Source: an uncultured virus (IMG/VR IMGVR_UViG_3300029923_000016)
Lineage: Duplodnaviria > Heunggongvirae > Uroviricota > Caudoviricetes
Virus record (IMG/VR): IMGVR_UViG_3300029923_000016
DNA: 20,000 nt
Reading direction: 5' to 3' (one strand)
Of the stretch, positions 1 through 14,300 are shown piece by piece (positions within the stretch are counted from its first letter, which is position 1; the number at the start of each line of letters is the position of its first letter). The translations under genes and the position numbers were made by a program. Under the pieces are notes generated by a model, which made no database searches, was not told where the DNA came from, and saw nothing but the letters and a program-made list of their open reading frames with translations.

Positions 1-1
1 G

Positions 2-223
2 GCAACTGCACGCTGTATCTTTGCTGAGGCGCTACCCAAAATCAATAAGCATTACCCTATTGTATTATTGATTCACGACGCCGCCTATGTCCTGGTGCCG
101 GAGGGGGGTGTAGAGGAGGCGAAGCAGATTTTAGAAGAAATCATGTGCCAGCCGCCGGACTGGATGCCGGATATTCCCTTGGAGGTTGAGTTTCATTATG
201 GCCGAACTCTTTTCGATTGTTAG
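2..223 (+). CDS. DNA polymerase family A, C-terminal fragment (gene begins before the window)
   Basis: Frame 2 (not in the ORF track) reads ATARCIFAEAL...PIVLLIHDAAYVLVP...IMCQPPDWMPDIPLEVE...GRTLFDC*. LLIHD resembles PolA motif C, and the PxW...PLxVE...G tail is typical of phage PolA. Confidence 0.85.
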   Translation, partial: ATARCIFAEALPKINKHYPIVLLIHDAAYVLVPEGGVEEAKQILEEIMCQPPDWMPDIPLEVEFHYGRTLFDC

Positions 224-350
224 GCAGTGTCTGTATTGTTGGCTACACGGCTTTGGCATGAAAACTGGAGCGGAGATTTGGCTTAGACGCCAAGGCATCC
301 GCGAAAATTCTAACTATCATTTAGGCTCACAGAGGCGACCACGTGAATGA
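198..350 (+). CDS. small hypothetical protein (50 aa)
   Basis: ATG at 198 preceded by GGAGG at 181-185; open to TGA 348-350 (MAELFSIVRQCLYCWLHGFG...). Overlaps the polymerase end and the next ORF start, as coupled phage genes do. Confidence 0.45.
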   Translation: MAELFSIVRQCLYCWLHGFGMKTGAEIWLRRQGIRENSNYHLGSQRRPRE

Positions 351-549
351 AATAGAGATTAGTTTTCACAGTATTGAGTTAAGTATTTTTTATAATATCG
401 ACCCCAAGATTGGCTTGAATATTTTGTATATCTACCATTTCGATGAGGAAATCTCCTGTTATCTTAATTTCTACGCGGTTTCGGAAATCAAACAGGCGAT
501 TTGGGAGCATCTCGATTCTCCTGATACTCTTTCAATAGCAAATCAATGA
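343..549 (+). CDS. hypothetical protein (68 aa)
   Basis: GTG start with GAGG about 7 nt upstream; AT-rich; no recognisable motif. Confidence 0.55.
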   Translation: MNEIEISFHSIELSIFYNIDPKIGLNILYIYHFDEEISCYLNFYAVSEIKQAIWEHLDSPDTLSIANQ

Positions 550-651
550 GTTGTGTTAGGGGGAGTCCCAAATCTAATGATAGCTGCTTAAGGTTTTTGT
601 GTGTCTGAACCTTAACCAGCAGAGAAACATATTTTTTATTCATATATAAGG

Positions 652-679
652 TTGCGTATTAAATTAGGGGGTGTATAAT
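652..679 (+). promoter_or_regulatory. sigma70-like promoter flanked by an 11-bp inverted repeat
   Basis: TTGCGT (652-657), 16-bp spacer, TATAAT (674-679). Flanked by TTCATATATAA (639-649) and TTATATATGAA (681-691). Confidence 0.6.
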
Positions 680-724
680 ATTATATATGAAATTTATAGA
701 GGGGGTTAATTTATGTGAGTCAAA

Positions 725-804
725 GCTATGCAATGCTTAGCCGTGCACTGCGATGCTGAGCGATGCCGTGCCTAGCTATGCTCTGCGGAGCAATGCAAAG
801 CCTA
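725..804 (+). repeat. GCNNW pentamer tract 1 (16 units)
   Basis: gctat gcaat gctta gccgt gcact gcgat gctga gcgat gccgt gccta gctat gctct gcgga gcaat gcaaa gccta. Confidence 0.95.
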
Positions 805-814
805 ATTAATTAGG

Positions 815-859
815 GTACTGAGTCTTCTCACGAGGGCTTAGTGCGGTAATTAATTTACC
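815..859 (+). ncRNA. putative structured RNA element, copy 1 (13-bp stem plus GGTA/TACC hairpin)
   Basis: gtactgagtcttc-tcac-gagggcttagtgc pairs fully when G-U is allowed, then ggta-attaatt-tacc. Homologous to 926-966 with compensatory changes. Confidence 0.6.
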
Positions 860-862
860 AAA

Positions 863-907
863 GCGCTGCTGTGCCTTGCTATGCGAAGCCATGCGGAGCA
901 ATGCAAA
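863..907 (+). repeat. GCNNW pentamer tract 2 (9 units)
   Basis: gcgct gctgt gcctt gctat gcgaa gccat gcgga gcaat gcaaa. Shares the 17-mer tgcggagcaatgcaaag with tract 1. Confidence 0.95.
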
Positions 908-925
908 GGCTATTTTAATAATAGC

Positions 926-966
926 GTACTAGCCATTCCAACGAGTGGTTAGTGCGGTATTGTACC
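926..966 (+). ncRNA. putative structured RNA element, copy 2
   Basis: gtactagccattc-caac-gagtggttagtgc stem, then ggta-ttg-tacc. Confidence 0.6.
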
Positions 967-969
967 ACT

Positions 970-1024
970 GCGATGCAGTGCGATGCCTTGCAGTGCCAAG
1001 CTTAGCATAGCACAGCGAAGCAAA
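970..1024 (+). repeat. GCNNW pentamer tract 3 (11 units)
   Basis: gcgat gcagt gcgat gcctt gcagt gccaa gctta gcata gcaca gcgaa gcaaa. Confidence 0.95.
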
Positions 1025-1025
1025 G

Positions 1026-1057
1026 GCCGTGCCTTTTAGGCACGGCACCCTATTTTT
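1026..1057 (+). terminator. GC-rich hairpin, possible weak intrinsic terminator
   Basis: gccgtgcct-ttt-aggcacggc (1026-1046) followed by accctattttt. The T-tract is offset from the stem. Confidence 0.45.
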
Positions 1058-1068
1058 AGGAGAATCAA

Positions 1069-1758
1069 ATGTCAAAAATGTTGCCGTGGAGTTATTCGGG
1101 GCTAAGCCAATTTCAAGTATGCCCGTTGCAATTCTACGAGCATCGCGTACGTAAAAGCGTACCGTTCATAGAGACCGATGCGATTAAGTACGGCAAAGCC
1201 CTGCACAGCGCGGCGGAGTTTTACATCAAGTCCAACATGCCCTTGCCTGCCGAGTTTGCGTTCATGCAGAGCTACCTGGATAAGCTAATAGCGTTGCCGG
1301 GCAAAAAATATGTCGAGCTACAGATGGGCATAGCTATCAAAGATTGGGCGTTTGTCCATTGTGATTACTGGGATTCAAGCTGCTGGTATCGGGGCGTCAG
1401 TGATTTTATTTCCGTTGACCACGATAATGAGAAAGCTTACCTGGTCGATTTTAAGACCGGTAAGAGTGCAGCCTATGCCGACACCACCCAGTTGGCATTA
1501 CTGGCGGCGCTTATTTTTCTGCATTTCCCGAAGGTCAAAACGGTCAAAAGCATGCTGTTGTTCGTCAAGGCTGGACAAATTGTCAAAGCAGAGTATGATT
1601 TTGCCAGTCGGTTTACAGTGTTTGCGCATCTGAATCAGGACTTAAAACGCCTGAAAGCGGCGTACGAAAGTAACGTGTGGAATCCAACGCAGAACAATTT
1701 CTGCAAGCGCTGGTGTGCGGTACATACCTGTGTACATAACGGAGAATATAGTGAGTGA
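1069..1758 (+). CDS. Cas4-like / PD-(D/E)XK exonuclease
   Basis: N-terminal WSYSxL...CP, central E...D...DFKTG nuclease motif, QLxL motif and C-terminal C-x3-C-x4-C (four Cys typical of the Fe-S staple). RBS AGGAGA. Confidence 0.85.
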   Translation: MSKMLPWSYSGLSQFQVCPLQFYEHRVRKSVPFIETDAIKYGKALHSAAEFYIKSNMPLPAEFAFMQSYLDKLIALPGKKYVELQMGIAIKDWAFVHCDYWDSSCWYRGVSDFISVDHDNEKAYLVDFKTGKSAAYADTTQLALLAALIFLHFPKVKTVKSMLLFVKAGQIVKAEYDFASRFTVFAHLNQDLKRLKAAYESNVWNPTQNNFCKRWCAVHTCVHNGEYSE

Positions 1759-1972
1759 GGAAGAGGTAGCGTACTTAACGCTGGAGCATCTGAAAGCTAT
1801 CCGCAAGACCGGCGAGCGTACCGCAGAGGACGTGAAAGATATCATACACCGTGTGTCCTCACTTGAGAGGTCAACGGCATTACTACACCTTGATTTAGCT
1901 CAAATCAACTATCGTCTGGATACTTTCGATGGGCGCTTGGGGCATATCGAGAAACGATTGGAGTTAGAATGA
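1751..1972 (+). CDS. small coiled-coil hypothetical protein (73 aa)
   Basis: GTG at 1751 after GGAGA is preferred over the track start at 1715; heptad-like Leu pattern (LEHLKAIR...RLGHIEKRLEL). Confidence 0.7.
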   Translation: MSEEEVAYLTLEHLKAIRKTGERTAEDVKDIIHRVSSLERSTALLHLDLAQINYRLDTFDGRLGHIEKRLELE

Positions 1973-2214
1973 ATGAACTACCCACAAACGGCCCCGGCAA
2001 ATACGATGATATTTGTACGGTGGCGCGAGAAAGAACCGATGCGCAAGCCGCCATTGTTATTATAATTAATGGCGTGTTGGGCAGTGGTTTCTCACTACAG
2101 TCGGAACATCCGGATGTAGTAGTCCAACTACCCGATATGCTTGAAACAATGGCTAAAGAAATACGTGAAATAATTACTGAGGAGAAGGCAGATGCCGTAC
2201 AAAGACATGAATGA
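1969..2214 (+). CDS. hypothetical protein (81 aa)
   Basis: ATGA overlap with the upstream stop; GGAG RBS. Confidence 0.7.
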   Translation: MNELPTNGPGKYDDICTVARERTDAQAAIVIIINGVLGSGFSLQSEHPDVVVQLPDMLETMAKEIREIITEEKADAVQRHE

Positions 2215-2455
2215 CCGCGACCCGTCACACGAGGCCCAGGTCGAAAAGAAAAACCCCAAAGCCGTGGCCGCACGCAAGAAACGGCAGCAGGCTAGACAAT
2301 TGTACGATAAACTCGATATCCCTAGAAAAGGTAAGGATATTGACCATATTAAGGGCACCGAAGCCGGCAACGCCAAGAGCAATCTCAGGCTACAGACGCC
2401 GTCACAGAACCGGTCATTCCCACGTAATTCAAATCACACTGCAAAGAGGAAGTAA
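2192..2455 (+). CDS. small HNH-family endonuclease-like protein
   Basis: KDIDHIK...GN..SNLR...S.NRS matches the HNH (HNN variant) pattern; RBS GGAGAAGG. Confidence 0.75.
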   Translation: MPYKDMNDRDPSHEAQVEKKNPKAVAARKKRQQARQLYDKLDIPRKGKDIDHIKGTEAGNAKSNLRLQTPSQNRSFPRNSNHTAKRK

Positions 2456-2456
2456 C

Positions 2457-2669
2457 ATGCAAATATCAACCAAGTCAGTGATATCACTGGCAGAGGAAGC
2501 GGGGCTCCCGCCCTCTTTAATCGAGCGCCACACCGATGCTTTAACGCATTTTGCACTCCGCCTGCGCATGGCAGAACGGCGCGTTTGTCGTAATAAGCTG
2601 CGCAACTGGACCATAGACAAGTCCCTGAGCAAGCCGCCGCTACTTGAGGCGCTGACGGAGCATGATTGA
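2457..2669 (+). CDS. hypothetical protein (70 aa)
   Basis: ATG at 2457 after AGAGGA, directly following the HNH stop. The track's start at 2211 is probably overextended. Confidence 0.65.
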   Translation: MQISTKSVISLAEEAGLPPSLIERHTDALTHFALRLRMAERRVCRNKLRNWTIDKSLSKPPLLEALTEHD

Positions 2670-5307
2670 GATAATACATGATAAGGTGTTATCCGTCACC
2701 ACGGATAGCCCTGACGACATTACAACAGTAATAGACAAGTACAAGATAGACAATGGCAAAGTGCTCATCCCCTTTAATCTGGGGAATGTTCACATATTAA
2801 AAAACATGGGCTTTACGGTACCGTCGCCCATTGAGACTCGGTATGGGTGGCCTGGACTCCATAAACCCTTTTCGCATCAGCGCAGTATCGCTTCGTTTTT
2901 GACCTTGAATAGGCGGGCGTATAACTTTGGCGAATTAGGAATTGGCAAAACGAAAAGCGCTATCTGGGCTGCCGACTACCTACTAAGTATAGGTGCTATA
3001 CGGCGTGTATTGGTTATCGCGCCGCTTAGCATCCTCGATTCTGCATGGAAGCAGGAGATATTCAGGACAGTGATGCATCGGTCTGTTGATGTGGCGCATG
3101 GCACAAAGGAGAAACGCGAGGCAATAATCAATAGTAAAGCTGAGTTTATACTTATCAATTATGATGGCGTCGAGATTGTGATTGACGCTTTGGACCGAGG
3201 TAACTTTGATTTAATCATAATTGATGAGTGCTTTGTAGCTGGGACACGAGTTCTTACGCCTATTGGTTTTAGAGCTATTGAACAAATCGTAGAAGGTGAT
3301 ATAATAGAGACAAGTTGGGGGCCAAGACCCGTAACCAAAACGTTTCATAAACAATCATCCAACATAGTTGAAGTCGAGTTTGAAGATGGTATCAAAATTA
3401 CCTGCACAGAAGAGCACCCTTTCTCAACCCGAAATGGTTGGGTCGCCGCAAAAGACCTCCTTGGTGAAATATGTACTACATCAAGAGAATTGTCACACCT
3501 GCGGGACGCCGTTCGAGCAGAAGGTGTTTGCCAACCAGAAGGCATCTCACTATTGTTCTCGCGCATGTTGGAAAGAGTCGTACTATGTAGATTTGGTGTG
3601 CGGGCATTGCGGAAAAAAGTATCGAAAGGTAAAGAGTTACTTAAGAACCAACCCTGCAAAATATTGCAGCACAAAATGTACGGCGCAAGCGCGCTCTGCA
3701 AAAGTTATGGGGGAGACAGTTATGTGTCCGGTCTGCGGAGGGGAGCATTTTGTACCCCACAGAGTGTTGCGGTATCGTCCAGCATTAACCTGTTCCCGTT
3801 CCTGCGCCAGAAAGTTAGTGTGGCAAACAGAGCGAAAGCGGATGATGGATGGCGTACAGAAAGCAGCGGAGAAGCATCGGGGCCAACCCTCACCTCTCAG
3901 GGGGATTCCCCATACAGAAGAGCGCAAGCAACAACAGCGTGCGCTGGCAGTAGAGTTGGGGAGTCGGGAACCGTTCATGCGAGTGCGGGGCGGCAATGGT
4001 ACGGGTATGTCAAGAGTAGAGTTACTAATGCGCTCAATACTCCCAGAAAGTTTCCAATACAACTATATTGTAAAGACATTACAAAAGCGTGGAAGCGGGT
4101 ATCCCTATCACTACAAGCTGGATTTCGCAGACCCTTTACAGATGATTTGTTTAGAAGTAGACGGGTACAGCCACAATACAATACAGCGTCAAGAACAAGA
4201 CAGGAAGAAAGAGGCGTTGCTTCAGGACTTAGGGTGGTCAGTGTTACGCGTATCCAACAAGGATGTCCTCGCGATGTTTGGAATCTGGAAGTAGCGGGCC
4301 CTCATGATTATATCGTTGAGGATGTGCTAGTCCATAACTGCAACTACATAAAGAACGTCCAAACCCGCAAGCACAAGTTCATTAACAAGTTGATTAAAGC
4401 GGATACCTGGTGCTGGCTAATGACCGCTACACCGGCTGCGCAGAGCCCTTGTGATGCCTATGGTCTGGCGCGTATGATAGACCCTAAATCAGTGCCTCGG
4501 TCTTATGGTGCATTTAGGGAGATGGTGCAGTATAAAATCAATATGTTTATGTGGATAAATAAACCCGATGCAGAGCGAACAGTACACAGAGTTTTACAAC
4601 CCGCAATTAGATTTACTAAATCAGAATGTTTGGATTTACCTGAGCTATTATATGAGACGCGTGAAGTACCTCTGACCGCACAGCAAAACAAGTATTACAA
4701 ACTTCTAAAAAAGGAAATGATGATTCTCGCTGCGGGTACAACGGTCACTGCGGCGAACGCAGCGGTTCTGATTGGAAAGTTGTTGCAAATTTCAGCGGGC
4801 AACTGTTATGATGAACGTGGGGATATTATTGAGTTTGATATCTCCAACCGATTCAGAGAGCTGTGTGATATCATCCGTGAGACGCGTAACAAAACGATAG
4901 TGTTTGTGCAGTTTAGGAACTCCATCGAGCGAATCATGCGGATGCTGCAGGATGAAGGCATTACTTGCGAGGCCATTCACGGGAAAATCCCCATGAATAA
5001 GCGGGATGTCATCTTCTCTGATTTCCAAAACAAACCCGACCCGCAAGTGTTAATCATCCAGCCGCAAGCTGCGGCACACGGTGTGACATTGACAAAAGCG
5101 GATACGACAATATGGTTCGGGGTACCCATGTCCTTTGAAATTTACCAACAAGGGAATGGGCGTACGCACCGCGCCGGACAACGCAACCAATGTACTGTTG
5201 TCCATTTGATAGGTAGTGATGTTGAGAAGAAAGTATTGAACGCGTTGGACAAAAAGAATATGTCCGCAACGACTCTATTGGCATTATTTAAAGAGGTAAT
5301 AAAATGA
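2662..5307 (+). CDS. SNF2-family (SF2) helicase precursor containing an intein (881 aa; about 511 aa after splicing)
   Basis: Walker A GELGIGKT, motif Ia VLVIAPLS, Walker B LIIIDE|C, motif III MTATP, HelicC motifs HGVTLT and QGNGRTHRAGQ. Confidence 0.93.
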   Translation: MIEIIHDKVLSVTTDSPDDITTVIDKYKIDNGKVLIPFNLGNVHILKNMGFTVPSPIETRYGWPGLHKPFSHQRSIASFLTLNRRAYNFGELGIGKTKSAIWAADYLLSIGAIRRVLVIAPLSILDSAWKQEIFRTVMHRSVDVAHGTKEKREAIINSKAEFILINYDGVEIVIDALDRGNFDLIIIDECFVAGTRVLTPIGFRAIEQIVEGDIIETSWGPRPVTKTFHKQSSNIVEVEFEDGIKITCTEEHPFSTRNGWVAAKDLLGEICTTSRELSHLRDAVRAEGVCQPEGISLLFSRMLERVVLCRFGVRALRKKVSKGKELLKNQPCKILQHKMYGASALCKSYGGDSYVSGLRRGAFCTPQSVAVSSSINLFPFLRQKVSVANRAKADDGWRTESSGEASGPTLTSQGDSPYRRAQATTACAGSRVGESGTVHASAGRQWYGYVKSRVTNALNTPRKFPIQLYCKDITKAWKRVSLSLQAGFRRPFTDDLFRSRRVQPQYNTASRTRQEERGVASGLRVVSVTRIQQGCPRDVWNLEVAGPHDYIVEDVLVHNCNYIKNVQTRKHKFINKLIKADTWCWLMTATPAAQSPCDAYGLARMIDPKSVPRSYGAFREMVQYKINMFMWINKPDAERTVHRVLQPAIRFTKSECLDLPELLYETREVPLTAQQNKYYKLLKKEMMILAAGTTVTAANAAVLIGKLLQISAGNCYDERGDIIEFDISNRFRELCDIIRETRNKTIVFVQFRNSIERIMRMLQDEGITCEAIHGKIPMNKRDVIFSDFQNKPDPQVLIIQPQAAAHGVTLTKADTTIWFGVPMSFEIYQQGNGRTHRAGQRNQCTVVHLIGSDVEKKVLNALDKKNMSATTLLALFKEVIK
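3229..4338 (+). mobile_element. class 1 intein (370 aa) inserted in helicase Walker B
   Basis: Block A CFVAGTRVLTP, block B ITCTEEHPF (TxxH), block F VWNLEV..HDYIV, block G VLVHN followed by +1 Cys. Excision restores IIIDE-CNYIKN. Confidence 0.95.
3368..4294 (+). CDS. nested out-of-frame putative homing endonuclease (Zn-ribbon repeats, NUMOD3-like segment, Vsr/DUF559-like nuclease); true start uncertain
   Basis: Three CxxCG...CSxxC repeats, GIPHTEERK, and C-terminal E...YKLDFA...CLEVDGYSH...DRKKEALL..LGWSVLRV. Candidate starts are TTG 3368, ATG 3386, ATG 3434 and GTG 3464. Confidence 0.88.
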   Translation: MKSSLKMVSKLPAQKSTLSQPEMVGSPQKTSLVKYVLHQENCHTCGTPFEQKVFANQKASHYCSRACWKESYYVDLVCGHCGKKYRKVKSYLRTNPAKYCSTKCTAQARSAKVMGETVMCPVCGGEHFVPHRVLRYRPALTCSRSCARKLVWQTERKRMMDGVQKAAEKHRGQPSPLRGIPHTEERKQQQRALAVELGSREPFMRVRGGNGTGMSRVELLMRSILPESFQYNYIVKTLQKRGSGYPYHYKLDFADPLQMICLEVDGYSHNTIQRQEQDRKKEALLQDLGWSVLRVSNKDVLAMFGIWK

Positions 5308-5483
5308 CAGCAAGCGAAATAGAAGATTTTAATGATTTATTATCTGATGCTGAGATGAACGCCAGCACGGATTGGGAACTCGAATTCACCGGTAGTATGA
5401 GGGCGCATTATAAAAAATATGGCGATGACACCTATGTGTCCGCCAAGCAATTACATCACCTGGAGAAGATTGCAAATGTGTGA
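5304..5483 (+). CDS. small hypothetical protein (59 aa)
   Basis: ATGA overlap with the helicase stop, RBS GAGG; MTASEIEDFNDLLSDAE...DWELEF...SAKQLHHLEKIANV. Below the ORF-track cut-off. Confidence 0.7.
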   Translation: MTASEIEDFNDLLSDAEMNASTDWELEFTGSMRAHYKKYGDDTYVSAKQLHHLEKIANV

Positions 5484-5595
5484 GACGTTACATTTGATAT
5501 CCATTGTACTGCTTATTGGCGCTATCGGTATGATGTGGGTGCTACACAGTGTAGGCAAGGCGCTGAATAAACAAGATGAGCGGGATAAGAGTTGA
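5476..5595 (+). CDS. small single-pass membrane peptide (39 aa)
   Basis: RBS GGAG; MCETLHLISIVLLIGAIGMMWVLHSVGKALNKQDERDKS has one hydrophobic stretch and a charged tail. Confidence 0.55.
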   Translation: MCETLHLISIVLLIGAIGMMWVLHSVGKALNKQDERDKS

Positions 5596-5620
5596 CAAAC
5601 TAGCTTTACAACTGTATAAT
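5592..5620 (+). promoter_or_regulatory. consensus sigma70 promoter
   Basis: TTGACA (5592-5597), 17-bp spacer, TATAAT (5615-5620), upstream of the ORF at 5655. Confidence 0.9.
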
Positions 5621-5654
5621 AATCTCACAGTCAACAACTAAACAGGACAAGACT

Positions 5655-6047
5655 ATGCCCGATGTAGAAAAGATAGTATCCGTCTATCTGAAAATCAGAA
5701 ACAAGAAAGCGGAAATCACCAAGGCTTATGAAGCGCAGATAGCAGAGCTTGACGCTAAACAAGATATGCTCCAAAGCGCATTGCTTGATTTGTGTAAAGA
5801 ACTGGGCGTTGAATCAGTTCGTACAGAATCCGGCACTGCCTTTAGGACTATCAAAGAACGAGTCTTCGTATCGGATTGGGCAGCTGTAGAGCAATTCATC
5901 TACGACAATGACGCGTTTGATTTGGTCGAGAAAAGGCTTGCCCAGAACGCGGCTAAGTCATGGATAAAAGACTTCCCAGACAAACCTATCCCGTCTGTGG
6001 TTGTAGACAGAAAGTTTACTATAACGGTTAGGAGAGGTAAGCCATGA
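5655..6047 (+). CDS. conserved phage protein with N-terminal coiled coil (possibly Gam/Gp157-like)
   Basis: Coiled-coil N-terminus followed by SVRTxxGT...VxDW...FI...DL.EKR, a pattern I associate with phage replication modules; RBS AGGA. Confidence 0.7.
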   Translation: MPDVEKIVSVYLKIRNKKAEITKAYEAQIAELDAKQDMLQSALLDLCKELGVESVRTESGTAFRTIKERVFVSDWAAVEQFIYDNDAFDLVEKRLAQNAAKSWIKDFPDKPIPSVVVDRKFTITVRRGKP

Positions 6048-6430
6048 GCGATTATTCTAATAATGAACTGTTACATCCGGACCTTCCTGAACCGGACATT
6101 TTCTTAACCGAAAAAGAAGTCAGGGAAATTTTAGGGTTATCCCGGCAGTCTTGTTATAATATGCGCCGAGCCGGCATCTTCACCAGCCACTATATCAAAG
6201 GCAAAGTGAAATACTCGGCCAAAGAAGTCGAAGCGTACATTGAGCGCAAATCATTGCCTGATATCCGTGTGACGCCAACAATCAGAACGCGTGCCAAACC
6301 CGGCGAACCGAAGAAGGAAAGAGTTTATACCAAGCCTGCCCCGTCTGTTGCCAAGATGAGCAAGCGCACCCCACCCCCTGCTACGATGCCAGAACCATCG
6401 TATGAGGACTTTGATAATTACTTTATATAA
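6044..6430 (+). CDS. excisionase/AlpA-like helix-turn-helix DNA-binding protein
   Basis: FLTEKEVREILGLSRQSCYNMRRAG...GKVKYSAKEV; Pro/Lys-rich tail; ATGA coupling. Confidence 0.8.
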   Translation: MSDYSNNELLHPDLPEPDIFLTEKEVREILGLSRQSCYNMRRAGIFTSHYIKGKVKYSAKEVEAYIERKSLPDIRVTPTIRTRAKPGEPKKERVYTKPAPSVAKMSKRTPPPATMPEPSYEDFDNYFI

Positions 6431-6439
6431 GAGAGCACC

Positions 6440-7417
6440 ATGAGCAACTTAAGCATATTTAAAAACGGCGGCGGCGTCCCTGCCCATCTTCAAAAAAGAG
6501 AGCTGTCTGCCGCCACCAAAGCCTTGATGGGTGGTTTTGAAAACCGCCGTATCTCTATCCGGGGCGGGGTCTTCCGCAAGGTCATCAATGGTCAGGAGGT
6601 GGGTTCCATCCCCGAACGGGCACTGAACGTGGTCATTGTTGGCGTCGCCGAGCATACTTCCCGGCAGTATTACAAAGCCGCCTATCAGGAGAATGCCGAC
6701 CCGGTGGCACCGGACTGCTACAGTGCTGACGGCATCACGCCGATGGCAACAGCGACGGCGATTCAAGCAGCCACCTGCGCCGCCTGTCCACAGAATATCG
6801 CAGGCTCAGGCCAAGGTGATTCCAAAGCCTGCCGCTTCCAACGCCGCATTGCGGTGGTCTTGGAGAAAAACCTGGAAGATGGTGAGGTTTATGAAATGAC
6901 GCTGGCAGCGACCAGTCTGTTTGGTGGCAAGGGCAAGCCTGACCCCGACAAGATGGGCATGCGCCAGTACGCCAACTTTTTGGGTGGTTACGGCGTCAAC
7001 ATCGACGCCGTGGTCACTGAATTGCGCTTTGATTTGGACGCCGCCACCCCGAAATTACTGTTCGCGGCATTAAGACCGTTAGAGACGGATGAGCTGTTGC
7101 TGGTTGAGGAATATTCCAAATTGCCGGAGACTATCCAGGCTATCACATACAGCTTTGGTGGGGTGGTGGTGAAACCGGCGGCTGCCGAATTGCCCTTTAT
7201 CCAGCCTCGCCCAGCTCCTGCCCCCGCAGCTGCGTCAGTGCCTGAGCCAGAGCCCGTCGTTCCGGCACGCACAAGGGTCACTCGAAATCGCCCCGCCGCA
7301 GCCGCTGCGCCTGCCCCTGAAGTCATTCCGGAGCCGATACGCCGTGAAAGCCACGCCGCGCCGCAACCCGCCTCGACAAATATTGATGAGCTGCTATCGG
7401 AGTGGGGCGACGAGTGA
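6440..7417 (+). CDS. putative single-stranded DNA-binding/annealing protein
   Basis: RISIRGGVF N-terminus, Cys cluster (PDC...CAAC...KAC), Pro/Ala-rich linker and acidic aromatic tail DELLSEWGDE; located just before the primase. Confidence 0.65.
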   Translation: MSNLSIFKNGGGVPAHLQKRELSAATKALMGGFENRRISIRGGVFRKVINGQEVGSIPERALNVVIVGVAEHTSRQYYKAAYQENADPVAPDCYSADGITPMATATAIQAATCAACPQNIAGSGQGDSKACRFQRRIAVVLEKNLEDGEVYEMTLAATSLFGGKGKPDPDKMGMRQYANFLGGYGVNIDAVVTELRFDLDAATPKLLFAALRPLETDELLLVEEYSKLPETIQAITYSFGGVVVKPAAAELPFIQPRPAPAPAAASVPEPEPVVPARTRVTRNRPAAAAAPAPEVIPEPIRRESHAAPQPASTNIDELLSEWGDE

Positions 7418-7423
7418 TATAAT
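7415..7423 (+). promoter_or_regulatory. possible extended -10 promoter
   Basis: TGaTATAAT overlapping the SSB stop codon, about 12 nt before pentamer tract 4; no good -35. Confidence 0.5.
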
Positions 7424-7435
7424 TTTTCTTCCATA

Positions 7436-7490
7436 GCGATGCGATGCCTAGCCTAGCTTAGCGTTGCGATGCGATGCTATGCAGTGCAAA
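7436..7490 (+). repeat. GCNNW pentamer tract 4 (11 units)
   Basis: gcgat gcgat gccta gccta gctta gcgtt gcgat gcgat gctat gcagt gcaaa, followed by the palindrome gccactttaaagtggc (7492-7507). Confidence 0.95.
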
Positions 7491-7513
7491 GGCCACTTTA
7501 AAGTGGCAAGAAC

Positions 7514-7540
7514 GAGCGGCTTAGGCCGCTCCTTTTTCCT
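7514..7540 (+). terminator. intrinsic terminator-like hairpin
   Basis: gagcggc-ttag-gccgctc followed by ctttttcct. Confidence 0.7.
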
Positions 7541-7558
7541 CTTCGGGACACATCAAAA

Positions 7559-10357
7559 ATGGACCCACATGATTTCCTCAGCTCCATCCTACCCAACACC
7601 GGCCCGTACTGTTTCACCCTCATTAAGAACGGCCTCGTTAATCAACAATTCATTGATGCTATCCCCACTGATGCCGAGCTCGTAGAGTTCGCCAACGACT
7701 ACGCCGACCACGATATTTATTTCGCCGTCGCCAGCTTCCAAACCAAAACCAGCCGCACCCAAGCCAATGTCGCCCAACTTAAATCCTTATGGATTGATTT
7801 GGACGTCGGCGGCAAATCAGCCTATGCTACCAAGAAGGATGCCAAACAAGCGCTTGATAAATTCGTCGCTGCTGCCGGGCTTCCTGCACCTACGCTGGTA
7901 GACTCCGGTGGTGGTGCACATATCTATTGGCCACTAACACAGGCTATTGATATCCCTGAGTGGAAGGCGTTGGTTCTGGCATTACTAAGCAAAGCGACGG
8001 AGCACGGGTTTAGCATTAAAGACATCGGTGTTTCCAAAGACAGCGCCCGCATTCTACGGGTTCCCGGAACAACTAACCATAAGTTCGACCCACTGCGACT
8101 CGTCGCCGTTATCAAGACTGGCACACCAACCGACCCGACTGTACTGGGGAGTTTGCTTAGCGTCGGCGCACCCATCCCGAATAATCCCAAAGTTAGAACG
8201 AATCTAACTTCACAGGCGGTAAGTAAACTCTCTCCGTTAACCCGCGCCTTGATGTCTCACCAAGGCCAGCAATACGGGCAGGTGATTACCCGGTCGATGC
8301 AGGGAACAGGTTGTGTGCAGTTGGCTAATGCTTATATCAATCAGGATGATTTAACGGGTATGCATTGGTGGAGCGTGATGTCTATCCCGCAGTTCACCGA
8401 GCAACGCCAGGAAGCGGTGCATAACCTCTCCTATCAGCACAGCAACTATTCAATCGAAGCCACCTTGCTTAAGGCCGAGCGCACCGACGGGCCGTATGCC
8501 TGCGCCAAGATAAGCGAGCATCGTCCGGAGCTCTGCACCGCCTGCCCTCATTACGGGAATATCACTTACCCTTTTTTGCTCGATAGGACCCCCCGCCCGG
8601 AGCAGGTCCACCCACTCAATGAAGACATTGCCCGCAGCGGCTTACCCCCCATAGTTTATCCGTATTTACCCGGCGCGCGGGCGGGTATTTATGTTAAACA
8701 ATTTATCCCTAACAAAGACGGCGACGGTGGCTCCATGGCCATCAAACACGTCTACAATCATACCTTTTACGTGTCAGGGCGCTGCCTTGACCCGCACGAG
8801 GGAGAGCTGGTCCACATGAAACTGATACGCCCCCACGACGGTGTTAAGGACTTTTCCGCGCCGTTATCCGAGATTACCGCCAAGGAGAAATGCAGGGAGC
8901 ACTTCTCCAAACAAGGCATGGCCGCAGATGCGTTTAAAATGAAGATGCTGATGGAATACACCACCGAGTTTTGCAGTTACTTACAAGAGATCGACAAAGC
9001 CGACAATATCCGTGTCCAGTTCGGTTGGCATGACAATGACACCTGCTTCATTGTCGGCAACCGGGAGATTCGCAAAGACGGCATCTATTACTCAATGCCC
9101 TCCAACGATACCCTGCAAGCCTCTGTCCAGTTTACCAAAGTCGGTACCTTGGCGGCATGGCAATCGGTCGCTCAGCGCTACGCAGGGCCTGATAATGAGG
9201 TACGGGCATTTGCCTTAATGATAGGCTTGGGCTGCCCGATGTTCAAATACTTGGGTCACGGCGGCGCTATCCTGCACTTGACCAACACACTATCGGGTGT
9301 CGGTAAGTCTGCCGCCCAAGGCTTGGCATTGAGCGCCTGGGGTCACCCCGACAAGGGCATGAGTCTGATGAAAGACACCCTGAACATGCGTCTGCATCGC
9401 CTGGGTGTGATGAACAATGTGGTGTTCTGCATGGATGAAATCACCCAGATGACCGCCGAAGAAGTCGGTACCCTGGCGTACTCGATTAGCCAAGGCCGAG
9501 GCAAAGGCCGCATGGAGGCGTCGGCCAACCGTGAGCGGGCCAATAACACCACCTGGAGCGTGCCGTGCATTACCTCGGGCAACGCCAATATCCATGACGT
9601 CTTAAAAGCCAACAGCATGAACTCCGATGGCGAGGTCATGCGGGTGCTGGAGATGCGCGTCGAGCCCATCACCGGCATCACCAAGGAAGAGTCTGACCGA
9701 CTGTTTATTGATGTCCTGCAGAACAACTACGGGCATGCGGGGGAAATCATTGTCCAGTATATCCTCAACCATCGGGAGGAGTGCTTCACGCGTCTGAAGG
9801 CCATCCAGAAAGAGTTTGATTTGGCCATGGGCTACCTTAACCCCGAGCGCTATTATTCATTGCTCACAACCACAGCCTTATGGGGTGGGGAGATTGGCAA
9901 CATGCTCGGCCTGATTGATATCCCGCTGGCGCCTATTGTAGATTACTTGATGAAACAAAACACAGACACCCGTAGCGAGGTGCGTACGCCTGAGCAAATA
10001 TCGGGTAATACCATCGGGACATTTATCAACGAGCACGCCGGCAATCATACCTTGGTGATTGACATGCGCCCGTCGAATATCCCCGGTGACCTACGCCCGG
10101 CGGTACAAATGCCGCGTGGCGAGCTGATGATACGCATTGAAACCGATACCAAAATGATTTATATCACCACTACCAGCCTGCGCAGTTGGTGCAGCAAGAA
10201 GCGGGTGTCGTTCAATGACACCGTCGAGGAGCTCAAGACCAAAGGTGCTTTGATAACCACCGGTCAAGTGAAGATGGCCGAAGGCACGCAGACATCATCG
10301 CCCGCAGTACGGGCGCTTATTTTAGACAAGACAATTTTAGATGAGATGGGGTTATAA
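7559..10357 (+). CDS. primase-helicase: RepB-like AEP primase fused to a DUF927-type P-loop domain
   Basis: LWIDLD, VDSGGGAHIYW and RILRVPGT.N.K primase motifs; C...CxxC Zn site; FGWH, SGVGKS (Walker A), FCMDEIT (Walker B), QGRGKGR. Confidence 0.88.
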   Translation: MDPHDFLSSILPNTGPYCFTLIKNGLVNQQFIDAIPTDAELVEFANDYADHDIYFAVASFQTKTSRTQANVAQLKSLWIDLDVGGKSAYATKKDAKQALDKFVAAAGLPAPTLVDSGGGAHIYWPLTQAIDIPEWKALVLALLSKATEHGFSIKDIGVSKDSARILRVPGTTNHKFDPLRLVAVIKTGTPTDPTVLGSLLSVGAPIPNNPKVRTNLTSQAVSKLSPLTRALMSHQGQQYGQVITRSMQGTGCVQLANAYINQDDLTGMHWWSVMSIPQFTEQRQEAVHNLSYQHSNYSIEATLLKAERTDGPYACAKISEHRPELCTACPHYGNITYPFLLDRTPRPEQVHPLNEDIARSGLPPIVYPYLPGARAGIYVKQFIPNKDGDGGSMAIKHVYNHTFYVSGRCLDPHEGELVHMKLIRPHDGVKDFSAPLSEITAKEKCREHFSKQGMAADAFKMKMLMEYTTEFCSYLQEIDKADNIRVQFGWHDNDTCFIVGNREIRKDGIYYSMPSNDTLQASVQFTKVGTLAAWQSVAQRYAGPDNEVRAFALMIGLGCPMFKYLGHGGAILHLTNTLSGVGKSAAQGLALSAWGHPDKGMSLMKDTLNMRLHRLGVMNNVVFCMDEITQMTAEEVGTLAYSISQGRGKGRMEASANRERANNTTWSVPCITSGNANIHDVLKANSMNSDGEVMRVLEMRVEPITGITKEESDRLFIDVLQNNYGHAGEIIVQYILNHREECFTRLKAIQKEFDLAMGYLNPERYYSLLTTTALWGGEIGNMLGLIDIPLAPIVDYLMKQNTDTRSEVRTPEQISGNTIGTFINEHAGNHTLVIDMRPSNIPGDLRPAVQMPRGELMIRIETDTKMIYITTTSLRSWCSKKRVSFNDTVEELKTKGALITTGQVKMAEGTQTSSPAVRALILDKTILDEMGL

Positions 10358-11119: not shown

Positions 11120-11351
11120 CCCGACAGAGTATCAAGGTTTGAGGCTCAAACTAGCGTGGGATGAATTGGAGATTGGCTTCTCATTTTTCATCCCGTGCTT
11201 AGACACGGAGACAATGCTCCGCACCATCTATACCGAAGCGGAGCGTAGGGGATATAAGCTTATCCACGAAGAACGTACAGAAAATGGTATGGCTGGCGTC
11301 CGTTGGTGGAGGGTTCCTCTTACGGACGATACACCCGATTATACGTCCTAG
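11106..11351 (+). CDS. hypothetical phage protein (81 aa)
   Basis: W..LEIG.SFFIPC...E.G..GVR.WR pattern; last gene of the + strand module. Confidence 0.7.
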   Translation: MPLFNPTEYQGLRLKLAWDELEIGFSFFIPCLDTETMLRTIYTEAERRGYKLIHEERTENGMAGVRWWRVPLTDDTPDYTS

Positions 11352-14300
11352 AGGCGCTCTCGGTAATCCGCTTTATCTGTGCATCAATGCGTTCGAGGCG
11401 CGCACGCTTAGCTTCTGGCGATATTCTATCATTCGGCGTCGCCATGATTTTGTCCTTTTGCGCTGTTAGATCGTGTATTTTTGCTGTTTTTTGGTTTACT
11501 TCTCGTTGCACGCTGTCAGATAACAACCGGCGGTTATCCGCACGCCCCAAGGCCAGATTGGCCTCCCGCCGCTTAAATTCCCGCGCTTCTTTGGTCTTGC
11601 CCAATGCCTCGAAGCGATTCACACTGGCCTTAGCTTCCCGCGCCGCGCCTCCCAAGGTATAGAAATCATCCACCCCCTGCGTCATCCGGTCGTTACGCAG
11701 CGGCATGCCCGGAATGTCTTTCGCTGATTTACCGTAACCGATATTAAACTGGTCTTCACGCGTGGCCGTATACGGAATATCCAAGCCGGCCCGTAGCGCC
11801 ATGTCGGTCACCATCATGGTCGTTGCCCCTGCATAGCCAAAATAGCCCTTAATAAAATGGTCGACCAAAAACGGTGACAGGCCGGCATGACCTAATAGTT
11901 TAGCCAGCTCTGAGGTCTTCTCGTTGTACTGCAGTTCCGGCGTCCCCGATAAATGCTTGTAGCGCTCGGGGATAATCGGGCGGTTGGTGTGGAAATCAAT
12001 ACCCGTGATATTCTCCAAGACCGGCTTGATAACTGTCGGCCCCATCGGTGCCCCGGCTAATATGCGCACTGTCGTATCCAACATAGCTTGACGGGTCTGA
12101 TACGGGTTCTCACTACCCTTATCCATCAGATATCGGTACACATGGTTCATGGCAATAAACGACAGTGAGAATACGTCCGCCCGCACCGTCATCGCATAGT
12201 CTGATTTAGAGCCGAACGGGTAGATATGGGTGTCGCGCTCCTGGATATCTTTCTTCTTGAACTCGTCGTCATCCCCCAACATCATGTTGTATAAAAAGGT
12301 AAACGTTGCCACTTGTGCCGAGGTGGCTGCCAAGCGCATCAGCGCTTCTTTGCGGGCAACGGGCGAGATGCCGCGCCCCGAGATGATATTGAGCTGGGTG
12401 CGGGTTGCCTGTAAATACGCCCCTAAAAACGGCGTCACTTGCATGAACGCACTTAAGGTCGCATTGGCACCCCGCTTCCTGAAGTTAATCACTTCAAACG
12501 CTCTTTGTTGGGCTATCATCTGCGCATTGGGTTGGCCTTTCATCTCTTTCATGGTACGCACATAGATGCCTTGACGGATGGCATTATCACCGACATTGGC
12601 GAAGTGCTCCAGTGCCCTATGCAGTGCCGCAAACGGACCTTTCTTAGCACGGCCATGCATGGCTAACTCGTGAATATGCTCGGTCGCCATACTGACGGTA
12701 TCTTTCTGTCCGACAATGCCGATGCCTTTTAAGTGCTCATGCGCATCGGTCGTGCCTTTCAACGTACCGGTCCACTCCTTGGCGATATCAATTAATAGCG
12801 CACCGGGGTTTTTGACCCCTGACGAGAACATCGCCGAGTAAGCGTCTTGCGGTAATTGATTTATCGTAAACAACGGGTCCAGTACGATGGCATTGCGCAG
12901 TCGGTTAGCGAACTTGGCGGCCATGGTTAAGGTAGGCAGGGCTACGGTATTGACGCCGTTAAACGCCGAGGTTAACAAAGGGTCTTCATACTCCCAATAC
13001 TCCTCACGCCCGTGCCGATAGACTTTAATGCCGCCGTTCTTGGTATTGGCCGCCGGCTTAACGGCACCGGGGTAAAAGTGCTTGGCGACAACCTCTTGGA
13101 GCTCCAGATTCTTGGCGTTCTTCACGCCTTTTACAAAGCTGTTGAGAATCCACTTCTCCATGTTCTCAACCATGTCTTTGACTTCCCGTTCGGAGCCTTT
13201 GATGGCATGCTCCTTTTGATTTGCCATTAAGCTCCGACCCCGTCCGCCCGCCATATAGCCATAAAATGCATCCGGGTCTTTCGCATCCATGAGCCGGTTG
13301 AACGGCACATACATCGTCGCGTCCATATAGGCTTTGGCCTGCTTCTCAGAATAGCGGCCCGTATCGACCAGGAACTTGACCATATAAGCCCGTACCCCAT
13401 GCCACTCTTTCAGTGCCTCGGCGTACTCGGGATGGTCGGCCAAGACTTTAAGCGCCGTGGCAATCTGGTCATCCGTCATGTGCTCTACATCCGCACGCCG
13501 CAAGATATTGGCGAACTTACGCTCAGCCATGGCTTTAACCTTAGGGTCGGTAGCCATATCAATGGCTTTCCGATAGGTCGCCGCCTGCTCACGGAACTCT
13601 TTGATACGCAGTGCTGAGGCAATATCGGTGAAAATGCCACTGACCGTCTCAAACGGCTTGCCTTGCTTCTTGGCATGCTTGGCCAGGATATCTTTCATCT
13701 TGGTGATGGAGAACTGCCCGGCCTTGGCCTCCCACTGCATCGTGTTTGGGTTGTAGTGCAACTCGCCTTGGATAGCGCCTTGGGCTGCCAGTGAATTGAC
13801 ATACACGGTCTGGCCTTGGAACGCCTGCGCCATAATCTTCTGTACCTCCGGCGTCGCCAAGCCCATCGCTTCCAAACGCGGCCGCAGTTGGTTATACAAT
13901 CCCGAGCTGTAGTCGAACAGTTCGTTCTCTATCTTGAGCACGGTGCGTTTTAGATTGGTCGAACGCGAGGGAATAGGCTTAGGTGGATTGGCTTTTAGGT
14001 GCTTCTCCCGCGCCGCTGCAAGCCGCTCCGCTTTTGCTGTTACGGCGGCTTCTTCAGACGAGGACAGCGCGTACGCTGTGTCAGCCCGTGAACCTGCATA
14101 TTTCAACGCCGACACCGCTAATTGCCGTGCGTCAGCCTCGGTGAACTTACTGCCAATGCCCAGATTAGCCCGCGCCCAATTACGGACGGCTGATATCAAT
14201 CGGCGAACCAATGAGTGCTTGGGTGCGTGCTCAACCAGATGGGCTAAGGCTTCTTCGGGAATCAAATGGCTTGGAGTGGACTTCGGTACCGCTTCACGCG

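Follow-up and report, generated by a model that had tools for sequence, protein, structure and literature searches.

Conserved, covarying hairpins between probable VIPR-type guide RNAs in an uncultured phage

VIPR, an RNA-guided DNA-silencing system described only in 2026, pairs a phage-encoded minimal RAMP protein, Vipr, with guide RNAs termed vrRNAs (bioRxiv 10.64898/2026.04.26.720920; bioRxiv 10.64898/2026.04.26.720927). According to the available text of these preprints, a vrRNA is built from 9-16 YNNGG units and ends in a constant structured tail, and one Vipr protomer occupies each unit, where the fixed triplet GGY is held and flipped out while the two free bases pair with double-stranded DNA, every third target base being skipped. 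In the same text, mature vrRNAs of Escherichia phage SUSP1 measure ~100 nt, natural targets are coding sequences in which it is the wobble position that is skipped, and "a related consensus" to GGY is allowed for; the cutting of type II multi-guide transcripts into single guides is not stated there. Here, we analyze a 20-kb stretch (the window) of an uncultured Caudoviricetes virus, IMG/VR record IMGVR_UViG_3300029923_000016, in which two similar hairpins interrupt runs of 5-nt units. Both hairpins are real, conserved RNA structures lying between short guide RNAs, and the region 722-1057 is very probably a tandem array of three VIPR-type vrRNAs, with the hairpins in the constant part between the guides. 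All positions are window coordinates unless a locus label (L followed by a number) is given.

Structure and covariation of the inter-guide module

The two hairpins are intergenic, flanked by the end of the gene for a family A DNA polymerase and by a PD-(D/E)XK exonuclease gene. Each of them, here called H2, consists of two 13-base arms around a 4-nt loop and lies on the + strand, copy 1 at 815-844 and copy 2 at 926-955. Stem positions 6-10 differ between the copies in both arms, with 13 of 13 pairs intact in each, and the five compensatory pair changes listed in the first-pass annotation of this DNA are present. G-U pairs, of which there are four in copy 1 and three in copy 2, had been taken to work on the + strand only and thus to imply a structure at the RNA level, and the folding energies agree: H2 reaches -17.1 (copy 1) and -17.5 kcal/mol (copy 2) as + strand RNA, as against only -2.4 and -7.4 kcal/mol for the reverse complements as RNA, and folding as DNA is weak, at -2.4 and -4.6 kcal/mol by DNA parameters. 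A repeat search lists 811-848 and 922-959 as a direct-repeat family with 74% identity and 804-827/832-855 as an extended inverted repeat (24 nt, 75% complementary). For the whole 371-nt transcript the minimum free energy (MFE) corresponds to z = -8.24, and none of 100 shuffles folds as well. Each H2 is the middle stem of an H1-H2-H3 module (801-859 and 909-966); the span of 804-966 originally assigned to the element covers both modules correctly. In copy 1, a 5-bp H1 (801-814) begins on the last base of the final guide unit and a small H3 (845-859) follows H2, and in copy 2 the corresponding + strand hairpins occupy 909-925 and 956-966. A search of the whole window against Rfam 15 (E<=10) gave four weak matches, none of them a ribozyme and none in 700-1020, and hence none in 804-966; no tRNAs were found, and blastn of 550-1100 against phages gave no match.

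The distribution of the module was followed with a seed alignment and a covariance model. The seed alignment comprises 20 modules, 14 selected by a three-hairpin RNAfold filter and 6 by hand; 99.5% of its cells pair, and 11 of the 13 H2 pairs change on both sides. The covariance model, R1, was run over 82 (442 kb) of 85 sources with a cut-off of E<=0.01, leaving out three loci that duplicate the arrays and the Vipr match of L135/L139. It yields 220 matches in the 82 sources, 219 of them on the Vipr-sense strand. Two are the window copies (50.9 bits, E 7e-13, and 51.7 bits, E 4e-13), which have no further companion in the 20 kb, and the remaining 218 sites lie in vipr loci and score 20-72 bits. 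Covariation within the family was assessed on the best 150 of the 220 matches (96 distinct), aligned by fitting to the model. In this alignment 97.5% of cells pair, compared with 76.5% after shuffling and 35-56% when the partners are slid, a percentage that leans towards the model; the number of pair types does not. Both-side changes occur at 17 of 20 pairs overall and are found in every hairpin: at 10 of 12 pairs in H2, most of these with four to six pair types, at 3 of 4 in H1 and at 4 of 4 in H3. None of 500 shuffles attains the observed covariation values, and covariation across the family lends support to every helix. Two wobbles are nearly fixed: of the 96 distinct copies, 95 have a U-G adjoining the loop-closing pairs and 76 a U-G at the second pair from the base of H2.

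The three-hairpin module also occurs in the Pseudomonas phages LESphi2 and Medea1, where it flanks GGY guides, and in ~60 IMG/VR loci with GGY guides. In addition, the H2 part of the model finds five + strand matches between the four vrRNAs of SUSP1 (9.6-13.1 bits, E 0.0012-0.013), and the hairpin is therefore common to both type II clades, the tail proper of SUSP1 being a pseudoknot. In arrays that adjoin genuine vipr genes, the module lies on the Vipr-sense strand and forms a conserved RNA structure with strong covariation.

Guide arrays, their transcripts and the changed triplet

The link to VIPR comes from the relatives of the module. Scanning viral contigs for nine WGC units (W, A or T) returned more than 124 loci, many of which are microsatellites and several of which have diverse units and ~110-nt spacing. 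Among them, L030 and L065 carry 8-10 tandem modules clearly homologous to those of the window. Directly after the arrays, module-bearing records encode a 193-aa protein that matches PDB entry 36pp_D, "SUSP1 Vipr protein", over residues 1-192 (E 5e-37), and a vap1 homologue (E 2e-16) is the next gene after vipr. SUSP1, LESphi2 and Medea1 are among the 135 phage records recovered by tblastn with the 193-aa protein. The WGC scan also contains a separate set of diverse period-5 arrays (L003, L008, L024, L048 and others), built of NNTGC units only or of NNAGC runs 4 nt apart; these have other spacer hairpins or none, some are apparently antisense to flanking genes, and they may belong to other VIPR types or be of a different nature altogether.

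Of the 61 units tallied by eye, 27 have A and 34 have T at position 3, to the exclusion of G and C; all 61 have G at position 4, and 57 have C at position 5, the other four being junction units. Positions 1-2 vary. The guides have lengths of 16, 10, 12, 12 and 11 units with the junction included, within the published range of 9-16. The fixed triplet departs from the canonical GGY: units upstream of the two modules have T (69%) or A (31%), followed by G and C, each at 100%. As in the arrays beside vipr, a constant structured region lies 3' of the last unit. Each guide is a run of 10-16 pentamers, with a fixed triplet and two free bases in alternation. With a Vipr subunit seated on every unit, the free dinucleotides would remain available for reading double-stranded DNA, and every third base of the target would be passed over. 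The idea that the 5-nt units form a binding platform for a TRAP-like ring protein was dropped, as the VIPR preprints and the Vipr match explain the units. The first-pass annotation did not recognize the units as guide RNAs; its interpretation is partly right in that the hairpins are an RNA element at unit boundaries, for which a processing role is plausible.

The three guides appear to share one + strand transcript. A promoter-like site identified by eye at 652-679 combines a -35-like hexamer (3/6) with a 16-nt spacer and a perfect -10; it is unlisted in the consensus promoter scan, the rule of which requires a -35 of at least 4/6. Guide array B1 (722-801) contains 16 pentamer units, each of two variable bases and W-G-C, and is followed by module copy 1; B2 (860-909) contains nine WGC units and a junction unit ending in GG and is followed by module copy 2; and B3 (967-1026) contains 11 WGC units and a junction unit. 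The hairpins stand, as had been proposed, exactly at the boundaries between array units of a single transcript, the place expected for a signal that separates units. Behind B3, a hairpin in H1 position and a T-run (1026-1057, without H2 or H3; stem 1026-1046 in the terminator scan, with nine pairs, seven of them G-C) is the predicted terminator of the three-guide transcript, and the scan lists no other terminator-like site in 500-1200. H2 itself is not an intrinsic terminator, with H3 directly 3' of it and only 1026-1046 listed. In assembled contigs of a wetland metatranscriptome, five short pieces fall on 1-8000, none of them over the hairpins, with 151-nt contigs at 995-1145, 1166-1316 and 2194-2478.

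Further guides of the same phage are organized as separate genes. The record from which the window derives is a 26.5-kb IMG/VR virus fragment (37% complete) with five WGC arrays, all on the + strand, and two single-run genes besides the three-guide unit. One of these, gene C (7414-7536, + strand, without H2), comprises an extended -10-like site identified by eye (7414-7422), a run of 11 WGC units with a junction unit (7433-7492), an H1-type hairpin at ~7491-7507 and a called terminator (7514-7531) with a T-run. The other, guide A, lies upstream of the window (L127 3576-3690, own genome) and has a promoter match of 10/12 ending 8 nt before the first unit, then, beyond the guide, H1 and an H2 of a second class with a conserved 3x3 internal loop; its module scores only 5.3 bits with R1. 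This second class is also present in canonical VIPR loci (e.g. L160 1783-1839), sometimes in the same array as the first. A 46.5-kb relative, 99.996% identical and 65% complete, adds a sixth guide gene with a promoter-like site, H1 and a terminator beyond the end of the own record (L220-L222, reverse-strand coordinates 43063-43107). Hence, the six guides of this phage are distributed over four separate promoter-driven genes, and the promoter signals of the sister arrays are clearer than that at 652-679. Every guide, the three terminator-ended ones without H2 among them, has H1 directly against its last unit. The H2-H3 pair is placed between guides, and in Medea1-type loci it flanks a single guide on both sides.

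The departure from GGY has a counterpart in the protein. Upstream of the modules, the triplet is GGY where the neighboring Vipr shares no more than 47% identity with the L128 protein and AGC in 15 loci where identity is at least 73%. In the available text of the cryo-EM preprint, H17 and D177 of SUSP1 Vipr contact the first G of GGY through hydrogen bonds, R138 and W178 hold G2, and a pocket that includes R179 accommodates the pyrimidine. An alignment of 83 Vipr sequences in SUSP1 numbering places S or A at position 17 in 15/15 of the AGC loci and G at position 177 in 14/14, compared with H at position 17 in 67/68 and D or E at position 177 in 67/67 of the other 68 Vipr; R138, R179 and an aromatic side chain at 178 are conserved in both groups. 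Along the loci, the guide triplet (AGC in L135-L149, GGY in L150-L214) tracks positions 17 and 177 with no exceptions where these are covered. The triplet change in the RNA coincides with the residue change in Vipr, and a Vipr without the first-base contacts could plausibly accept A or U, as the guides of the window require. Replacement of the first-G readers alongside the shift from GGY to AGC or WGC provides a lead for re-engineering or predicting the RNA specificity of Vipr.

The role of the hairpins

Position, conservation, strand and covariation of H2 are observed, and a function in cleavage is predicted from them. In the proposed mechanism, H1 would serve as the 3' cap or handle of each guide, and H2, together with H3, would mark the cut points of a multi-guide precursor in the manner of CRISPR repeat hairpins, with the near-invariant U-G wobbles and the conserved loop-closing bases as possible recognition points for a processing factor, either Vipr itself or a host RNase. 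The assignment of H1 as cap or handle and of H2 (with H3) as a processing or boundary signal is about evenly balanced. The reading of H2 draws on its position and on the guide length in SUSP1, where mature vrRNAs of ~100 nt, the size given in the preprint text, would be too short to include flanking H2 hairpins. H2 is absent from three of the six guides and is therefore not needed by every guide. A more far-reaching proposal, in which Vipr as a RAMP protein recognizes and cuts H2 as a functional forerunner of Cas6 at CRISPR hairpins and the phage is at the same time a vipr-less free rider, its six (A/U)GC guides loaded onto another phage's Vipr of relaxed specificity from the AGC clade that lacks both first-G contacts, is rather unlikely as a whole. 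Two other candidates were rejected. A self-cleaving ribozyme between the guides, as in VIPR arrays interspersed with hammerheads, finds no Rfam ribozyme match, and the module has no unpaired core between its helices; an internal promoter within the module, considered by eye, has weak hexamers in the window copies and none in G+C-rich homologues.

Other explanations assign the module a regulatory role or move it to the DNA. The first-pass annotation proposed a two-state element, and of this claim the competing extended fold is thermodynamically real: the module can fold as three hairpins or as a long rod with H2 lengthened by pairing of the H1 3' arm to the H3 5' arm, and these forms are near-isoenergetic in both copies, at -26.9 and -24.2 kcal/mol in copy 1 and at -27.0 and -27.5 kcal/mol (MFE) in copy 2, which takes the extended form in the MFE structure of the full transcript. 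Among 96 distinct copies of the family, the rod equals or exceeds the three-hairpin form in stability in 41 and comes within 2 kcal/mol of it in 68, and most copies have compatible extension pairs, namely C-G in 88/96, A-U in 93/96 and a third pair that is C-G in 61, U-A in 22 and U-G in 10. A switch between the two forms that toggles processing or Vipr loading is nevertheless improbable. The extension contains a G-G mismatch that is invariant in 95 of 95 copies, which suggests that the rod is selected against or, failing that, is not selected for; its sole covarying pair uses columns that already covary within H1 and H3, both of which have both-side changes of their own; the U-A cases come from A+T-rich lineages and may represent few independent events; and local hairpins should form first during transcription. 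The likeness to the put RNA of phage HK022 that the first-pass annotation drew fares worse. Antiterminator RNAs of the put type are a two-stem-loop family acting upstream of terminators that are to be read through, and tandem stem-loops on one strand of a phage transcript, upstream of a terminator, invite the analogy. An element acting in cis on RNA polymerase for read-through would, however, need terminators downstream, and the only terminator-like site in 500-1200 is the final one, with none between the modules and the next guides; moreover, the 220 module copies lie in VIPR arrays of many phages, always with pentamer guides, and single-guide genes of the same phage terminate normally without a module. 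Such a role is accordingly most improbable, and no more credence attaches to an element acting as DNA, such as an origin, a cruciform or a field of protein-binding iterons. The setting in a replication-gene region between DNA polymerase and exonuclease, the A+T-rich flanks and the inverted repeats would suit a DNA element, but the hairpins are weak under DNA parameters, the U-G wobbles are conserved, the arrays are confined to the + strand with modules in 219 of 220 cases on one strand, and promoter and terminator flank the arrays.

Partner protein, targets and comparison with known systems

The guides of the window are found apart from any detected partner. They would serve either a Vipr whose gene lies in the third of the genome not yet sequenced or, as "solo" guides, the Vipr of another element, and the choice between the two is roughly even. 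Read as solo vrRNAs of a vipr-less phage, the six guides would make use of, or misdirect, the Vipr of a phage or prophage resident in the same host, a proposal that falls just short of an even call. It agrees with the failure to detect vipr or vap1 in the 46.5 kb available, which make up 65% of the genome, with the scatter of the guides over four promoter-driven genes rather than beside one locus, and with the description of solo vrRNAs on vipr-null phages and satellites in the available preprint text (bioRxiv 10.64898/2026.10.15.759431). It is opposed by the third, approximately, of the genome that is unseen and by the finding that no guide matches the 80 vipr loci above chance. Two open reading frames next to gene C were examined as a hidden Vipr and rejected, with hhalign probabilities of 0.6% for 5655-6047 and 0.1% for 6440-7417, which has an SSB-like acidic C-terminal tail. 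The latter (+ strand, 325 aa, phrog_27714) contains a proline/alanine-rich linker, may be a single-strand DNA-binding protein and lies directly upstream of gene C.

A candidate target was found for guide B1. Its 8-unit seed occurs at 12 loci, and in two of these the match extends to 11 consecutive units. In a 94%-complete provirus, units 5-15 of B1 give 11 consecutive exact unit matches, and 26 of 32 positions match overall, within a Phage_portal gene (E 8e-41), where the free dinucleotides correspond to codon positions 1-2 and every skipped base is a wobble base, as in the natural targets described in the VIPR preprint text. When the unit order of B1 is shuffled, the best score in this provirus averages 18.5 (standard deviation 0.8), and none of 200 shuffles reaches 26. 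Self-targets and targets in the 80 vipr loci have best scores at chance level.

Several observations weigh against the assignment of the region to VIPR-type guides separated by a boundary signal. At E<=10, vipr was not found in the own record or in five near-identical records, the longest of which covers 46.5 kb (65% of the genome), and neither was vap1 in the own record or in near-identical records of up to 46.5 kb. The candidate target concerns one of six guides, with collection-wide pattern searches covering B1, B3 and C: the exact 11-unit one-base-skip patterns of B3 and C have no match in viral contigs, the 11-unit pattern of B1 has none in 185,579 species genomes, and the other five guides are without an above-null match in the target provirus. 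This provirus has a G+C content of 65%, compared with ~51% for the phage, and therefore may not share a host with it. Neither WGC nor AGC is among the noncanonical triplets named in the available preprint text (bioRxiv 10.64898/2026.10.21.760802). B3, C and the sixth guide end in H1 and a terminator without H2. Finally, the covariation alignments favor the structure, as 14 of the 20 seeds were picked by a fold filter and the large alignment was fitted to the model.

Among the other genes of the region, the family A DNA polymerase (932 aa, L127 3993-6791), which runs into the window at 1-223, has an apparent intein-like insert judging from its translation. An SNF2-type helicase gene (2662-5307, + strand) contains an intein, with Hint and intein-splicing domain matches at residues ~190-560, and is overlapped in another frame by a 308-aa open reading frame (3368-4294) whose C-terminus resembles a small endonuclease. 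On the - strand, 11320-16704 encodes a virion protein of 1794 aa in which the N-terminal part is an SLT lytic transglycosylase domain; the protein also contains an LPD38 domain and has a weak, sub-threshold match to the Thoeris inhibitor family Tad4 (E 0.0094).

The present analysis extends the published VIPR picture and does not overturn it. It adds a covariation-supported structure for the inter-guide module, whose fixed wobbles are obvious mutational targets, a central hairpin common to the SUSP1-like and Pseudomonas-like clades, and a phage with six such guides and no vipr in two thirds of its genome. The AGC triplet or the tail structure of the Pseudomonas clade may already stand in figures or supplements of the preprints; their available text models the tail for the SUSP1 clade only, from five sequences (bioRxiv 10.64898/2026.04.26.720920; bioRxiv 10.64898/2026.04.26.720927).

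Among known systems, the locus is closest to type II VIPR as the available preprint text describes it for SUSP1 and a Pseudomonas fulva prophage clade. Both have pentamers of a triplet and a dinucleotide, 9-16 units, a structured 3' region and tandem phage arrays, and the H2 apex recurs between SUSP1 guides. The candidate target of B1, like the natural targets described, lies in coding sequence with wobble positions skipped. Unlike in SUSP1, the triplet is (A/U)GC instead of GGY, no vipr or vap1 is nearby, the guides are distributed over four promoter-driven genes, and the tail is formed by H1 (with H2 and H3), where SUSP1 has a pseudoknot. The solo vrRNAs of vipr-null phages and F5 satellites (bioRxiv 10.64898/2026.10.15.759431) resemble the present guides in having a cognate-type tail with no vipr found in the element. 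Those described in the available text, however, number one or two guides at the deleted vipr-vap1 locus of SUSP1-like phages and have GGY units and a pseudoknot tail, in contrast to six WGC guides at four loci of an unrelated phage, whose incomplete genome leaves the absence of vipr unproven. A period of 5 and a non-GGY triplet are shared with the noncanonical VIPR arrays (GAC, CAC, WGT and TGH; bioRxiv 10.64898/2026.10.21.760802), which, as far as the available text goes, adjoin Vipr-like folds, whereas in the present case the change of triplet is linked to two particular positions in Vipr. According to the VIPR preprint text, the RAMP partner family of CRISPR systems is related to Vipr.

Outside VIPR, the HK022 put RNA is likewise a phage-encoded, cis-located RNA of several hairpins, but the present module differs from it in architecture, has no terminator to override and belongs to the VIPR-array family. 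A likeness in working may be drawn to CRISPR repeat hairpins and Cas6-type RAMP proteins, where a constant hairpin stands between the variable guides of a precursor; the differences lie in the gapped pentamer code in place of a contiguous spacer, in a module of three hairpins, and in cleavage, which is here predicted only.

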